This document shows, in pieces, positions 324 to 61,422 of a stretch of 64,000 nucleotides of DNA (position 1 is its first letter; each line of letters begins with the position of its first letter). The notes under the pieces are model-generated. The model was not told where the DNA came from. It worked only from the letters and a program-made list of their open reading frames with translations, and made no database searches. The DNA lies in the NCBI GenBank assembly GCA_900544725.1, contig UQWK01000001.1, forward strand, positions 15,066 through 79,065. The letters are read 5' to 3'. The DNA comes from an uncultured Collinsella sp. (GTDB lineage Bacteria > Actinomycetota > Coriobacteriia > Coriobacteriales > Coriobacteriaceae). Both the position numbers and the translations under genes were made by a program.

Positions 324-420
324 TCCTCAGGGACGCAACACATCAGCCCACCGACCCAAGCATTATGAGTGGGGCGTGCCGGCCAACGGACGCGAGGATT
401 CGCAGCAAAGGCAACGTAGC

Positions 421-546
421 TCCGGCCGGGAGGGGCAGGGCGAGTTTTCCGTAGATTCCGCACGAGCCGAAGGCCACTTAATGTGGCCTTCGTGCGAGCC
501 CAGGACTTGACCGAGCGGAAAACTCGCCCTGCCCCTCCCGGTCGGA
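421..546. repeat. Palindromic repeat element copy R1 (conserved core ttccgcacgagcc...cacttaatgtg; 26-bp perfect outer inverted repeat ccgggaggggcagggcgagttttccg)
   Basis: Core shared with copies at 11397, 13571, 30851, 61196; central stem gaaggccac/gtggccttc covaries relative to other copies. Confidence 0.8.
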
Positions 547-582
547 GCGTATGCAGGGTTTGTGTACGAATCCTCGCGCCCG

Positions 583-3339: not shown

Positions 3340-11316
<7,977 letters not shown>

Positions 11317-11344
11317 TTTCCTAGTACGTTAACCGTCCTTCCAA

Positions 11345-11381
11345 AGACCCGTTTCCCAACAGGGAAGCGGGTCTTTTTTTG
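11345..11381 (+). terminator. Rho-independent terminator after rpoC
   Basis: agacccgtttccc-aacag-ggaagcgggtct followed by ttttttt. Confidence 0.85.
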
Positions 11382-11396
11382 TGAGGAACGTTGCCC

Positions 11397-11576
11397 TGAC
11401 GAGCACGTCGGATTCCCGGAACGGGCGGCGCGGGGGTTAAGTTTGTCGCGAGTTCCGCACGAGCCGGAGAGCACTTAATGTGCTCTCCGTGTGAGTCAGG
11501 ACTGTAGAGCAGCAAACTTAACCCCCGCGCCGCCCGTTCCGGGAATCCGCTCCCGCGCACAGAAGGGGATTCCTTT
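11397..11576. repeat. Palindromic repeat element copy R2 (36-bp perfect outer inverted repeat; core gtcgcgagttccgcacgagccggagagcacttaatgtgctctccgtgtgagtcaggactgtagagcag)
   Basis: About 85% identical to R3 (13571-13751) over its whole length, with compensatory changes in the arms. Confidence 0.85.
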
Positions 11577-11578
11577 TG

Positions 11579-11603
11579 CCAAAAAGGGACAGGTTTATTT
11601 TGG
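11579..11603. repeat. 25-nt hairpin ccaaaa-agggacaggttta-ttttgg (GGGACAG-loop family); exact inverted partner at 13530-13554
   Basis: Perfect reverse complement found at 13530-13554; the two copies bracket the ECF sigma/anti-sigma cassette. Confidence 0.85.
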
Positions 11604-11701
11604 TCGGTTTTTCATGCTTGAATTTGAAACATTTCGCCCGACAAGAGCGTATCTATGGTGAGGGCCTCATCAAGAATCATTACCGTCACCGGGAGGTGAT
11701 T

Positions 11702-12220
11702 ATGGAAGAACAAGCTTTTAGACAGGCGGTCGAAGACCACCGGGATGTCGTGTTTCGGATCGCATTGACGTATCTGCGTGATCGCGCTGACGCCGACGAT
11801 GTCGCTCAAGACGTCTTTCTTAAGTTGCTCAAAAGCGACGCGCAATTTGAAAACTGGGAGCATCTTCGTCGATGGCTTATCCGGGTCACGATCAATGAAT
11901 GTAAATCTCTCTTTCGAAAGCCGTGGAGGCGCGTGGAGGATATTGAGAATCTGGCCGATTCGCTTTCGACGGCGCAGGAGGAGACCAAGGCGGTCCTGTC
12001 AGACGTTATGCGACTTCCGGAACGATTCCGTGTTCCCATCGTGCTCTATTACTATCTAGGCTTTTCGACCTCAGAGATTGCCGAGTTGTTGCATGTACCA
12101 GCCGCGACCGTTCGAACGCGTTTGGCTCGTGGCAGATCGAAGCTCAAGTTCATCCTAGAGGAGGGCGACCGTGAAATCCAATCAAATCAAGCAGGCCTTC
12201 GAGTCCGTCCAAGCCGATAG
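11702..12220 (+). CDS. ECF-family RNA polymerase sigma-70 factor
   Basis: Sigma-70 region 2 (DVAQDVFLKL...W..RV) and region 4 (SEIAELLHVPAATVRTRLARGRSKLK); RBS gggaggtga; lower GC than flanks. Confidence 0.85.
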   Translation: MEEQAFRQAVEDHRDVVFRIALTYLRDRADADDVAQDVFLKLLKSDAQFENWEHLRRWLIRVTINECKSLFRKPWRRVEDIENLADSLSTAQEETKAVLSDVMRLPERFRVPIVLYYYLGFSTSEIAELLHVPAATVRTRLARGRSKLKFILEEGDREIQSNQAGLRVRPSR

Positions 12221-13247
12221 CGATCTTGCTGACCGTGTTCTTTATGCCGCTGCTGGTGAGCCGCTTCGTCGAAAGGGTCACGCGAAGCCTCTGTATGTTG
12301 CCGTAGTTGGATGTCTTGTCGGAGTGTTGGCGACCGGAGGGGTCGCCTACGCCGTTGTCAAATCCGCCTATTTTGCCTCAGCCTGGGGAAACCACGGCAA
12401 CGGGGATTCCATCACCTGGACCAACGGCGGCTCATCGGGGACTAAATACACCTACACCAGAGAGTTTGGTGATGGCATCGCGCCCCAAAGCTTGGAGGGT
12501 TCAGTACAGAAGGTCAATCTGTCCGTCGAGGGCAACGGCTATACACTCGACATTCATGATATGGCTATCGATAAAAACGGTTGCGGTGCCGTGACGTTTA
12601 CGTTGTCCAATCCAAATGGTGTTAACTACTACAAGCCGGCAGCAGAGACTGGCGAACTTGTTCTCTATGGTGAAGAAGAACAAGGCATCGGCACGCCCAG
12701 CATGAACTTCGGCGAGGAATGGGCTGATACACGCTGCACAATTGATAAAGACACATCAAGCGACACGGTCATTAACGGCACGATGTACTTTGCCTCGTGG
12801 GATCGCGAGCGAGATTTGGGACATGCGGTCACCTGGAATATCTGCTGGACTGAGGGCGAAGGCGAGGACGCGAAGCTGTTCGAGGCATCGACGCCCGAGT
12901 TTAGCGTTGGAGCGTACGTCGATACAAAGGAACTCCGCTCCGATGACTCGCCTCTCGAGATCAGCCCGTTTTCCATCCAGACGCACATCGACGATCTGGG
13001 CATTGACGCAGTCACGAAAAAGTTGACCGTTACCTACAAGGATGGATCGGAGCAGATTATCGAAGATGACGACGCAGGGGCGTTCAACTTATATTTTTCT
13101 TATACGCGCAATAGCGGAGAGAACATCTGGGTGCCAACGAAGTTGATTGATGTCGACCAAGTGGTCTCAGTAACGCTTGAGGGCACGAGATACACATCAA
13201 CAGGAGAGACCGAAACAGAAGTACCCTTTACCATCGTCTATTCGTAA
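12171..13247 (+). CDS. Putative anti-sigma factor / membrane-anchored protein with large extracytoplasmic domain
   Basis: Immediately downstream of, and overlapping, the ECF sigma gene; single TM helix LYVAVVGCLVGVLATGGVAYAVV after a short N-terminal domain; GTG start uncertain. Confidence 0.6.
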   Translation: MKSNQIKQAFESVQADSDLADRVLYAAAGEPLRRKGHAKPLYVAVVGCLVGVLATGGVAYAVVKSAYFASAWGNHGNGDSITWTNGGSSGTKYTYTREFGDGIAPQSLEGSVQKVNLSVEGNGYTLDIHDMAIDKNGCGAVTFTLSNPNGVNYYKPAAETGELVLYGEEEQGIGTPSMNFGEEWADTRCTIDKDTSSDTVINGTMYFASWDRERDLGHAVTWNICWTEGEGEDAKLFEASTPEFSVGAYVDTKELRSDDSPLEISPFSIQTHIDDLGIDAVTKKLTVTYKDGSEQIIEDDDAGAFNLYFSYTRNSGENIWVPTKLIDVDQVVSVTLEGTRYTSTGETETEVPFTIVYS

Positions 13248-13252
13248 GGTCT

Positions 13253-13288
13253 AGGCCGCTTCCCAAGAGGGGAAGCGGCCTATTTTGC
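13253..13288 (+). terminator. Rho-independent terminator after anti-sigma gene
   Basis: aggccgcttccc-aaga-ggggaagcggcct followed by attttg. Confidence 0.75.
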
Positions 13289-13529
13289 GTTATATGGACG
13301 GTTATTTTGAGCGATATTCGCCTGAATTTCGGAAGTATGCGGCAAAATCTCGATGGGTCGACCACACCGCATATGCTCAAGCGCTCTGCCTGCGGGTTTA
13401 TTATCGCAAAACCCCGGCGTGCTCGGCAGGTCCAGAATTTGCCGCATACTTCCGAAAACACCGCCAATCTACATGTGTTAGTGAGGTCGGATCGCCGCTG
13501 GAGCGTGGCATTTCCCCAGGTAAAACCTA

Positions 13530-13554
13530 CCAAAATAAACCTGTCCCTTTTTGG
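13530..13554. repeat. 25-nt hairpin ccaaaataaacctgtccctttttgg, inverted partner of 11579-11603
   Basis: Exact reverse complement of 11579-11603. Confidence 0.85.
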
Positions 13555-13570
13555 CAGGTAGCGTTGTTCC

Positions 13571-13751
13571 GACGAGCACGTCGGATTCCCGGCCCGGGCG
13601 GCCCGCTGTTTAAGTTTGTCGCGAGTTCCGCACGCAAAGGAAAGCACTTAATGTGCTTTCCGTCTTGCGCAGGACTGTAGAGCAGCAAACTTAAACAGCG
13701 GGCCGCCCGGGCCGGGAATCCGCCCCCGCGCACAGAAGGGGATTCCTTTTG
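13571..13751. repeat. Palindromic repeat element copy R3 (core with gaaagcac/gtgctttc central stem)
   Basis: Same orientation and extended similarity to R2, including flanks gacgagcacgtcgg... and ...cgcgcacagaaggggattccttttg. Confidence 0.85.
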
Positions 13752-13780
13752 TGTAGGCTTTGCGGAAATATGCTCATTTT

Positions 13781-13834
13781 GGGATACGCCCGGCGGCGTG
13801 GTCTGTTGACGGCACAGCTAACGGCACGTATCCT
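13781..13834 (+). promoter_or_regulatory. rpsL upstream region: motif gggatacgcccggcggcgtgg followed by candidate promoter ttgacg -N17- tatcct
   Basis: GGAYACGCCCG motif shared with regions upstream of rplC and rplB; good -35/-10 spacing. Confidence 0.45.
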
Positions 13835-13927
13835 ATCGAACTGCGTGTTTCGTAGGGGGATGCTGACCCCTCGATTCAAGCCGTTGCACTTTACAGAAAG
13901 CTGGAATCATTCGAGAAGGAGTACGCT

Positions 13928-14305
13928 TTGCCTACTATTAACCAGCTGGTTCGCCAGGGCCGTCGTTCCGTGCCCAAGAAGTCCAAGAACGCTGCTCTGC
14001 AGCACAACTCCCAGAAGCGCGGCGTGTGCACCCGCGTCTTCACCACGAGCCCCAAGAAGCCGAACTCGGCTCTTCGTAAGGTTGCCCGTGTTCGCCTTGT
14101 CAACGGCATCGAAGTTACTGCTTACATCCCGGGTGAGGGCCACAACCTGCAGGAGCACTCCATCGTGCTCGTCCGCGGCGGTCGTGTCCGTGACCTCCCT
14201 GGTGTCCGTTATCACGTCATCCGTGGCGCCTACGACGCTGCTCCGGTCCAGAACCGTATGCAGGCCCGTTCCAAGTACGGTGCTAAGCGCCCCAAGGCTA
14301 AATAA
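13928..14305 (+). CDS. rpsL: 30S ribosomal protein S12
   Basis: TTG start with RBS gaaggag; [12 protein letters not shown]... conserved. Confidence 0.95.
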
Positions 14306-30814: not shown

Positions 30815-30850
30815 CCTGAGCGAGCAAGGTTTAGCAGACATCAACGTGGC

Positions 30851-31013
30851 GTTCCCAGTGTGCGGCGGAGGGGGCGGGCCTGAGACATATTAAGGTTGCT
30901 GCTCTACAGTCCTGCTCACGACGGAGAGCACATTAAGTGCTCTCCTGTTCGTGCGGAACTCGCGACAACCTTAATATGTCTCAGGCCCGCCCCCTCCGCC
31001 GCACACTGGGAAC
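30851..31013. repeat. Palindromic repeat element copy R4 (inverted orientation; 48-bp perfect outer arms gttcccagtgtgcggcggagggggcgggcctgagacatattaaggttg)
   Basis: Core ggagagcacattaagtgctctcc plus ctgctctacagtcctg equals reverse complement of the R2 core. Confidence 0.85.
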
Positions 31014-31063
31014 GTGCCACGCACTTTACCTGCGTAAACAATGTGAGTGAAATATGAATCTCG

Positions 31064-39568: not shown

Positions 39569-39699
39569 TCTGTAACATCTGGGGCCGATTTTGCCGAGTT
39601 ATTGTTACAGATTGAGATTTTCCCTTGAGGGGGATTCAAATGTCTCGATCTGTAACAGATAGACCGGAAAATGGGTTCCAGCTGTTACAGATCGAGACG
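39569..39699. repeat. Cluster of four TGTTACAGATYGAGA-like short repeats in alternating orientation
   Basis: gtctgtaacatctgg (minus), tgttacagattgagat (plus), tctcgatctgtaacag (minus), tgttacagatcgagacg (plus). Confidence 0.6.
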
Positions 39700-39730
39700 T
39701 TTTGGGACCGCGGCTGAGCCATTGCGGCAA

Positions 39731-57518: not shown

Positions 57519-57667
57519 ACGGACTCCTTTCATCGATGTTGGCAGGGCCACCGTGCCTCTTGGCCGGTTGGCGTCGGGATCGTGGAGCCAACTCTCTACC
57601 CCGACTCTGGATAAAACGCGCCCGCTCCTTGCGGGCACGATGGAGTCTATCAGCACGCGCGGACAGA

Positions 57668-57731: not shown

Positions 57732-57850
57732 ACATCCGGAAAAGTGTCGAAATCAGCCGTATGAAAGTACGGAAAAGTGTCGAAATCGGCACCTCAAAAG
57801 TACGGAAAAGTGTCGAATCTGATGGTCTCAACATCCGGAAAAGTGTAACC
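57732..57850 (+). repeat. Four tandem ~30-bp direct repeats with core CGGAAAAGTGTCGAAATC
   Basis: acatccggaaaagtgtcgaaatc / aaagtacggaaaagtgtcgaaatc / aaaagtacggaaaagtgtcgaatc / acatccggaaaagtgtaacc. Confidence 0.8.
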
Positions 57851-61195: not shown

Positions 61196-61318
61196 TGTCC
61201 GGAGGCAGCCGGAGGACTTTACTCCCTGCTCGGACAGTCCTGCTCGCACGGAGAGCACATTAAGTGCTCTCCGGCTCGTGCGGAACTCGCGACGGAGCAA
61301 AGTCCTCCGTCCGCCTCC
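61196..61318. repeat. Palindromic repeat element copy R5 (inverted orientation)
   Basis: cggacagtcctgctcgcacggagagcacattaagtgctctccggctcgtgcggaactcgcgacgg; outer arms ggaggactttactcc / ggagcaaagtcctcc. Confidence 0.8.
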
Positions 61319-61422
61319 TATGGTTACTTGCTTGTGGGGTACTCGACCTCACGCTGCTTGGCACAAGTGATCTATCTGAAATATCTACCTGTAGGTAAAC
61401 CCTTGTAGAAAGGTTGACTGTT

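Follow-up and report, generated by a model that had tools for sequence, protein, structure and literature searches.

An ECF sigma/anti-sigma module between rpoC and rpsL in the Collinsella aerofaciens complex, probably an old insertion among dispersed intergenic repeats

A 64-kb stretch of DNA from an uncultured Collinsella sp. (hereafter the window) carries, between rpoC and rpsL, a gene for an extracytoplasmic function (ECF) sigma factor and a gene for an anti-sigma factor. The pair is enclosed by an inverted repeat and, outside it, by two direct copies (R2 and R3) of a ~200-nt repeat unit, R. Where did this cassette come from, how old is it, and do the repeats mark its ends? A preliminary description, drawn from the letters alone, had suggested that the cassette was acquired as a unit or could be excised, with R2, R3 and a pair of inverted 25-mers bracketing it.

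We compared the window with 80 species-representative contigs found by a scan for the RpoC C-terminus (n = 81 loci, given below as L numbers). The 80 contigs show 99–100% identity to the RpoC C-terminus query, and nearly all are titled Collinsella or C. aerofaciens. Ten of the 81 loci could not be resolved, mainly on contigs broken at R, and the presence of the cassette is counted over the 71 resolved loci. We consider it probable that an old ECF sigma/anti-sigma module, with an anti-sigma factor of the DUF4179/BAS1627 type, was inserted in the ancestor of the C. aerofaciens complex and inherited vertically from then on, and that the repeats are not its ends. The module is ordinary in kind; the oddest part of the region is the R repeat family.

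Age and origin of the module

The cassette lies at the rpoC–rpsL junction in 67 of the 71 resolved C. aerofaciens-group loci (species-level genomes), in identical orientation in all 67, and a deeper lineage with an anti-sigma factor 83% identical carries it at the same site. Synonymous divergence (dS) is 0.22 for sigma and 0.28 for anti-sigma, similar to the 0.23–0.35 of three ordinary neighbouring genes, and the cassette has thus diverged together with the genomes. The ratio of non-synonymous to synonymous divergence (dN/dS) is 0.086 for sigma (over 62 loci) and 0.176 for anti-sigma, which places both genes under purifying selection. This near-universal presence, the backbone-like dS and the purifying selection together indicate that the cassette is old and vertically inherited within the clade. 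Acquisition as a recent event is not borne out, given the single shared site and a dS equal to that of backbone genes.

In the outgroups sampled, the same junction is compact or differently filled (percentages give identity of the RpoC tail):
L085 (88%): compact 282-nt junction with a recognisable terminator and rpsL promoter, without R, 40-mer or cassette
L086 (84%): Flg_new and Rce1-like genes
L087 (80%): 229-aa open reading frame (ORF) and an Rce1-like gene
L088 (77%): 228-aa ORF, LytTR, DUF559 and a 70-aa ORF
L089 (69%): ArsR-type helix-turn-helix gene

L085 is the closest of these by RpoC-tail identity. Its compact junction and the unrelated cargo in the other relatives argue that the cassette is an insertion at the scale of the family. 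On this sequence comparison, the cassette appears ancestral to the C. aerofaciens species complex, and the rpoC–rpsL junction appears to be a recurrent landing place. Acquisition as a unit therefore stands for the promoter–sigma–anti-sigma module, on an evolutionary timescale only and on the evidence of the outgroup junctions; it falls for R2, R3 and the 25-mers as ends. Likewise, the expectation that the rpoBC–str junction is normally compact holds for one relative (L085), but elsewhere in the family cargo and insertion sequences (IS) are frequent. Individual loci of the comparison hold further guests at this junction:
L053, 12651–15100: IS256-family transposase
L062, 3252–4851: IS3-family transposase
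L007, 10941–14400: IS3-family transposase and an AAA_14/DUF4143 ATPase
L038, 2039–3838: DUF6273 membrane protein in a low-GC segment

The GC content of sigma and anti-sigma is 0.51–0.53. At third codon positions (GC3) it is 0.56 and 0.60, respectively, against 0.71–0.86 in rpoB, rpoC, rpsL, rpsG and fusA, so that the cassette is, computed gene by gene, indeed more AT-rich than rpoC and rpsL, as had been noted. These GC3 values are the lowest among all retained ORFs of the window, not merely lower than those of the neighbours; the contrast with the neighbours is exaggerated because they are highly expressed, codon-biased genes. This leaves room for the explanation that nothing was inserted, and that sigma and anti-sigma are ancestral backbone genes whose lower GC reflects weak expression and weak codon bias. 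The near-universal presence and backbone-like divergence of the cassette within the clade would fit, as would the inflated contrast with the unusually GC3-rich rpoC, rpsL and fusA and the finding that related modules elsewhere are also somewhat GC-poor relative to their own flanks. We nevertheless think it quite unlikely. The terminator and rpsL promoter of the compact L085 junction are homologous to those of the window, other relatives hold unrelated genes, the GC3 of the cassette lies under that of every other retained ORF in 64 kb, and homologous modules occupy different loci in other genomes. Present sampling also suggests that cassette lineages are nested among compact or differently filled junctions, and the literature places DUF4179 anti-sigma factors almost wholly in Firmicutes (PMC7826278, PMC6066255). 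From that reported near-restriction (PMC7826278) we infer a foreign origin for the anti-sigma family.

The cassette was not found on phages, and its sole 'plasmid' match, a C. aerofaciens replicon of 900 kb, shows an unchanged rpoC–sigma–DUF4179–rpsL order. This record (NZ_OY725717.1; L215, L216), labelled C. aerofaciens 'plasmid 6', carries rpoBC and ribosomal protein genes and is therefore a piece of chromosome.

Repeats around the module and its loss

The order of elements that had been described, from the rpoC terminator through R2, the 25-mer, the two genes, a terminator, the reverse complement and R3 to the rpsL promoter, agrees with the following layout of the window:
11316 (end): rpoC stop codon, read from the sequence
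11343–11376, plus strand: rpoC intrinsic terminator from a terminator scan (15-pair stem, then a T run; variant 'T1')
11375–11578, plus: R2, the left R copy (direct repeat D2, inverted repeat I7), with palindrome arms 11409–11445 and 11513–11549 (37/37 complementary) around an asymmetric conserved core, 11446–11512
11577–11616, plus: IRL, the left 40-nt inverted repeat (I8), a diverged copy of a ~55-nt motif that is dispersed between genes
11625–11653, plus: predicted ECF-type promoter TGAAAC-N17-CGTATC (motif match and conservation across loci)
11702–12220, plus: sigma, ECF (group 4) sigma-70 family, 172 aa (Pfam and TIGR02937)
12171–13247, plus: anti-sigma, single-pass membrane protein, 358 aa
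13252–13282, plus: cassette intrinsic terminator (13-pair stem with 9 G–C pairs, then TTTT)
13327–13457, no strand: spacer hairpin element (I10), 43-nt arms, 81% complementary, presence varying between loci
13517–13556, minus: IRR, the right 40-nt inverted repeat (I8), a well-preserved copy of the ~55-nt motif
13548–13751, plus: R3, the right R copy (D2, I9), arms 13582–13618 and 13686–13722 (37/37)
13806–13834, plus: rpsL promoter TTGACG-17-TATCCT, sigma-70-type, from a promoter scan
13928–14305: rpsL, adjoining gene of the str operon

The 25-mer ccaaaaagggacaggtttattttgg (11579–11603) has its exact reverse complement at 13530–13554, as had been noted, and the inverted repeat extends to 40 nt with 93% complementarity; a 20-mer taken from it occurs at 2 places in the window against 0.00 expected. 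The 25-mers had also been called hairpins, but in the window the folding of the two copies is no better than that of shuffled sequence (z +1.1 to −0.4). The consensus of the 40-mer family is a ~55-nt motif, AAAACCTGCCAAAAAAGGGACAGGTTTATTTTGGCAGGTTTTATCTGGGGAAACG, with a 14-bp stem, which is found at 13 places in a 0.9-Mb C. aerofaciens replicon. Solo copies sit, in either orientation, in the gap that separates a terminator or stop codon from the start of the next gene (L105:6368–6422, L159:654–712, L196:975–1031 and 2001–2057, L199:6409–6465, L201:710–765 and L216:1501–1554); one solo copy, for instance, precedes a ROK-family gene. In one cassette-less locus, L040, IRL, sigma, anti-sigma and the terminator are missing while the spacer, IRR and R are kept, and thus the two 40-mers do not act as paired ends of a single unit. 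(Although its sequence is Collinsella, this contig is catalogued under Bulleidia.) The 40-nt inverted repeats are instead two copies of the dispersed motif. Nucleotide diversity in IRR is 0.04, against 0.1–0.25 in the flanking non-coding DNA.

Mobile insertion cassettes such as MIC231 of Bacillus cereus carry passenger genes between inverted repeats and no transposase. The Collinsella genes, too, lie between inverted repeats without a transposase, and the 40-nt repeats could be terminal inverted repeats served by a transposase in trans, with sigma and anti-sigma as passengers that are still movable. The 93% complementarity of the repeat, its ends (TG...CA) exactly at the limits of the inserted DNA, the presence of both copies in most cassette-bearing loci, and the absence of both from L026 and L034 along with the genes all favour this. 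However, no target-site duplication lies outside the 40-mers (flanks ...CCTTT/TGCC and GGCA/GGTAG), there is no second copy of the unit, and, unlike the repeat of a mobile insertion cassette, the motif also occurs solo, in unrelated intergenic regions, at its 13 places in 0.9 Mb. The right copy is retained in L040 without the cassette, the left copy is degenerate in L081, all orthologues examined sit at one site and none on phages, the related modules L213, L217 and L218 lack the motif in the sequence examined, and synonymous divergence is the same as that of the backbone. We hold a still movable cassette to be very improbable.

Three other roles for the inverted repeat or its motif were considered and rejected. 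As an inverton, the 40-nt repeats are contradicted by the 67/67 cassette loci with the same orientation relative to rpoC. The ~55-nt motif shows no consistent −10/−12 element by eye that would make it a sigma-54 or sigma-70 promoter, and its tail GGGGAAACG is not followed by a correctly spaced CGT in the solo copies, as a second ECF −35 element would be.

R2 and R3 are direct repeats of 204 nt with 84% identity, each with a perfect 37/37 palindrome; the ~85% identity and the homology past the palindromes given earlier are thus confirmed, the latter reaching ~30 nt beyond on each side. R-left is present in only 11 of the 67 cassette loci, and R-right in 40 of the 51 loci with a resolved right side; several loci outside these 40 hold internally deleted R remnants. 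As R-left is absent from 56 of the 67 cassette loci, R cannot define the inserted unit. R is also dispersed: it occurs five times in the window, at 11 places in a C. aerofaciens replicon of 0.9 Mb and in more than 120 stretches of metagenome sequence. The three further window copies, at 419–548 (plus), 30850–31014 (minus) and ~61205–61325 (minus), have internally complementary arms of 33, 49 and ~25 nt, respectively; they share the conserved core GTCGCGAGTTCCGCACG...CACTTAATGTG...GGACTGTAGAGCAGC and have very different arms. The 0.9-Mb replicon holds roughly a dozen copies of R and as many of the 40-mer, and neither repeat, therefore, belongs to the cassette. With R2 in 11/67 loci, both families dispersed and present as solo copies, and IRR retained in L040, the view of R2, R3 and the 25-mers as the ends of an acquired unit does not hold. 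R2 and R3 are copies of a dispersed ~200-nt hairpin repeat, R2 probably being a later addition in a minority of lineages. At three independent places, R adjoins the CCAAAA end of the ~55-nt motif.

A module with an R copy on either side, as in the window, can be deleted by homologous recombination between the two, with a single R left behind. Four loci lack the cassette (L026, L034, L040 and L078). The single R of L026 is chimeric: its left flank, left arm and core correspond to R-left in genomes that have two R copies (L029, L008), with a match to R-left of L029 over ~144 nt, and from the right arm onwards it follows R-right. This is the product expected from recombination between R-left and R-right, that is, deletion by homologous exchange, and the potential for excision through R2 and R3 that had been suggested is thus evident as a natural deletion. 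In L034, the flank is of the R-left type and the body of the R-right type, which fits a crossover placed more to the left than in L026. L040 and L078 share a junction that differs from these single-R sites. In a comparison over 8 kb of rpoBC sequence, L026, L040 and L078 each have cassette-bearing loci as their nearest neighbours (the upstream sequence of L034 is too short), which favours loss, although recombination at the locus blurs the tree. Such recombination is implied by the rpoC terminator, whose variants do not track rpoBC relatedness. Variant T1 is present in 44 of the 81 loci. Variant 'T2', a nested palindrome around another terminator, occupies the first ~185 nt 3' of rpoC in L004, L012, L013 and 33 other loci (~45% of genomes), where it stands in for the short terminator of the window.

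That the cassette is a recent islet bounded by R2 and R3 as attachment-like direct repeats, excised as a circle by site-specific recombination and frequently gained and lost, is barely credible: the direct R repeats in the window, the single-R empty sites in L026 and L034, the atypical composition and a contig, L157, that reads like a circle or tandem copy speak for it, but R-left is missing from most cassette loci, no integrase or recombinase gene lies inside the cassette unit (the search for an integrase did not extend to the wider window), the window holds no tRNA, cassette dS equals that of backbone genes, and the apparent crossovers differ (L026 has its crossover to the right of the core, L034 within the left flank), a pattern that fits homologous rather than site-specific exchange. 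The same presence in 67/71 loci, dS and lack of a tRNA set the cassette apart from a recent genomic island, despite its composition. The contig in question, L157:1–3168, is a low-coverage metagenome contig that reads rpoC–R–IRL–sigma–anti-sigma–IRR–R–IRL and then ends. It could be a tandem copy, a circle or an assembler path through R, and the last explains it equally well, as many contigs break at R.

The R family shows an unusual pattern of conservation. An asymmetric core of ~70 nt is nearly invariant, whereas the basal arms of 25–49 nt vary between sites and between orthologous copies, with 23 distinct arms among the 50 R copies at the rpoC–rpsL junction, sister species included. Within a copy the arms remain complementary (at most 2 mismatches in 35 nt in 41/50 copies), against a between-copy mean of 5.2 mismatches. 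Seven of the 50 copies, at cassette-bearing loci, are chimeric, with 5 or more arm mismatches, and thus exchange between R copies appears common. R is very stable on either strand (−128.6 and −126.3 kcal/mol), R2 folding at −128.6 kcal/mol with a z-score of −12.4. Two explanations for the conservation of the hairpin can be offered: selection on the hairpin itself, or template-switch correction of quasipalindromes, a known mutational process.

Dispersed intergenic palindromic repeats are known from bacteria as the ERIC/IRU, REP/BIME, REPIN, Correia and BOX-type families. R resembles them as a 140–200-nt imperfect palindrome, exclusively intergenic and in either orientation, that is present in tens of copies per genome, varies in presence at orthologous sites, and acts as a recombination substrate and a cause of assembly breaks. 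It differs in where it is conserved. Miniature inverted-repeat transposable elements and REPINs have conserved ends; in R, by contrast, the central ~70 nt are conserved and the basal arms vary. The hallmarks of REP/REPIN are a conserved REP sequence at both hairpin ends and a RAYT transposase in the genome. That the ends are the variable part of R speaks against membership, and no associated transposase was identified for R, the genome not having been searched for a RAYT gene. Integron attC sites have conserved R and L boxes at the base of the stem, a free centre and an adjacent integron integrase. We rejected R as an attC site: its GTTAAGT fits GTTRRRY but lies inside the stem, not at its base, and the conservation pattern is inverted. 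Rfam searches, at gathering thresholds over the whole window and permissively over 11300–13950, gave no family for R or the 40-mer, the only matches in this check being chance ones to mir-1292 and Metazoa_SRP. A search of the literature on Collinsella repeats or this sigma factor gave nothing relevant.

A bolder proposal, which we regard as rather doubtful, is that R represents a previously undescribed class of structured repeat and, together with the ~55-nt motif, makes the junction a recombination-prone port that captures and sheds regulators. If so, the pattern in R would point to a selected folded RNA or DNA hairpin presenting the core to a dedicated partner, or to an active process that homogenises the arms.

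Among the remaining elements of the junction, the rpsL promoter is almost unchanging across loci (diversity ≤ 0.02) and has homologous sequence in the cassette-less outgroup L085. The spacer hairpin (13327–13457) has an occupancy of 0.31 in a 49-locus alignment; as a dispersed repeat it was rejected, being confined to this junction in 2.3 Mb of related DNA. The hairpin of the cassette terminator, GCCGCTTCCCAAGAGGGGAAGCGGC, is much like the rpoC terminator of relatives, GCTTCCCAA.AGGGGAGCGG (L085:5740–5780, and just 3' of rpoC in L034 and L026), which could reflect a duplicated terminator or coincidence.

The predicted sigma/anti-sigma system

The sigma factor consists of regions 2 and 4 only, as in ECF (group 4) proteins, which are about 160–200 aa long: Pfam Sigma70_r2 matches residues 10–76 with 54.9 bits and Sigma70_r4_2 matches residues 104–148 with 51.3 bits, and TIGR02937 scores 89.7 bits against a cut-off of 42.9. 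Many gene callers give it 247 aa (proteins P0241–P0274) by starting the ORF further upstream, among the intergenic repeats; the start at 11702, where a ribosome-binding site and an ATG are conserved, points to 172 aa instead. RefSeq annotation is already in place for the pair ('RNA polymerase sigma factor' and 'DUF4179 domain-containing protein'). The sigma and anti-sigma ORFs overlap by 50 nt and are followed by one terminator, and the pairing of sigma with a downstream anti-sigma is kept in the 67 loci, as well as in modules related to this one (L213, L217 and L218). By this adjacency, single terminator and conserved pairing, the downstream protein qualifies as the predicted cognate anti-sigma factor of an ECF group.

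The motif TGAAAC-N17-CGTATC occurs once in the 64-kb window, where 0.09 matches would be expected, and lies 49 nt before the sigma start codon. Its elements TTTGAAAC and GCGTAT are unchanged in 49 aligned loci while the spacer varies, and the same motif, then GYGAGGGCC, lies upstream of two related modules, L213 and L217, which occupy other loci and belong to high-GC genomes. It is presumably an autoregulatory ECF promoter, a type with an AAC-type −35 element and a CGT-type −10 element.

The N-terminus of the anti-sigma factor, which is short and cytoplasmic, is followed by a transmembrane helix (about residues 41–63) and a beta-rich ectodomain of ~290 residues. A DUF4179-like domain had been named as one possibility, and 34 of 46 members of the family match DUF4179 at E ≤ 0.01, the window protein itself falling below the Pfam cut-off; Pfam gave it no other family. 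Its structure was predicted with a pLDDT (predicted local distance difference test) of 86.7 from a 46-sequence alignment (33.8 from a shallow alignment of close homologues). Among the matches listed, the sole strong fold match of the ectodomain model is PDB 3FBQ, at 12–13% sequence identity, whereas a profile search of PDB sequences with the anti-sigma gave nothing useful. The protein belongs to a small family, which forms 178 clusters at 50% identity among 1.84 billion representatives.

3FBQ is the ectodomain of B. anthracis BAS1627, an ECF30 anti-sigma factor and DUF4179 member (PMC6066255). Both systems place a single-pass anti-sigma directly downstream of a small ECF sigma, and the Collinsella anti-sigma would share the DUF4179-type juxtamembrane segment of BAS1627; they differ in sequence (12–13% identity only) and in host, an actinobacterium (Coriobacteriia) here and a Firmicute there. 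The match does not point to any signal, since BAS1627 has not itself been characterised (PMC6066255). The lysozyme-gated RsiV and its partner sigma-V of B. subtilis pair an ECF sigma with a DUF4179-bearing anti-sigma, as the Collinsella module would. Sigma-V and BAS1626 represent the ECF30 group, in which the anti-sigma factor carries DUF4179, a transmembrane helix plus juxtamembrane helices. In RsiV, DUF4179 bears a gated signal-peptidase site, which lies within amphipathic helices directly after the transmembrane segment (PMC6066255). The nearly invariant ASA at residues 69–71 of the Collinsella anti-sigma, in a short helix just past the membrane helix, is a candidate AXA site that sits where the site of RsiV lies. 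The likeness has limits: the Collinsella sigma falls short of the SigV equivalog model (72.6 versus 190 bits), and the RsiV structure, with its lysozyme-binding type of ectodomain, is not among the fold matches listed. Lysozyme as the signal is thus not implied, given also that Pfam found no family except DUF4179.

The module would be self-contained, with its own promoter, ECF sigma, cognate single-pass anti-sigma and own terminator. It would have been inserted between the rpoBC and str (rpsL-rpsG-fusA) operons in the ancestor of the C. aerofaciens species complex and kept by purifying selection. At rest, the N-terminus of the anti-sigma would hold sigma at the membrane, as in the family. An extracellular cue acting on the BAS1627-like ectodomain might then expose a signal-peptidase site outside the membrane, for which ASA 69–71 is the candidate, and site-1 cleavage followed by intramembrane site-2 cleavage would free sigma, as for RsiV (PMC6066255, PMC8844934). 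Free sigma could transcribe from TGAAAC-N17-CGTAT promoters, its own included.

Several findings weigh against an old inserted module of this type whose repeats are not its ends. The nearest homologous modules lie at other loci in genomes of 62–66% GC, not in Firmicutes. The anti-sigma matches DUF4179 with 23 bits, under the Pfam cut-off of 30.1. Sigma is below every NCBIfam equivalog cut-off, the best being PRK11924.1-5 at 105 versus 259 bits, and it reaches 72.6 bits with the SigV model (cut-off 190). The functions of the promoter, of the interaction between sigma and anti-sigma and of the cleavage are predicted ones. IRR may have a function related to this locus, given its conservation above the non-coding surroundings. 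Finally, with recombination frequent at the locus, the empty sites might in principle have survived from the ancestral state instead of arising by deletion.

The comparison adds the natural history of an intergenic 'safe harbour' that separates two operons ranking among the most conserved: its cargo differs from lineage to lineage in Coriobacteriia, IS256 and IS3 elements are drawn in, and deletion through recombination of flanking repeats is documented. A type of sigma/anti-sigma pair reported almost exclusively from Firmicutes is here fixed in a dominant actinobacterium of the human gut, where it is a candidate envelope-stress or host-factor sensor for Collinsella biology. The R repeats break short-read assemblies right at this phylogenetic marker locus.

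Elsewhere in the window, three other elements were observed. The sole Rfam family in the window is an S-adenosylmethionine (SAM) riboswitch (RF00162) at 57527–57617 on the minus strand, with 45.1 bits against a gathering score of 44.4. Beside this region, at 57737–57835, lie three tandem 33-nt units (D12) beginning CGGAAAAGTGTCGAA. At 39638–39702, a 26-nt inverted repeat (I18; 88% complementary, 13-nt gap), AAATGTCTCGATCTGTAACAGATAGA, resembles an operator or terminator.

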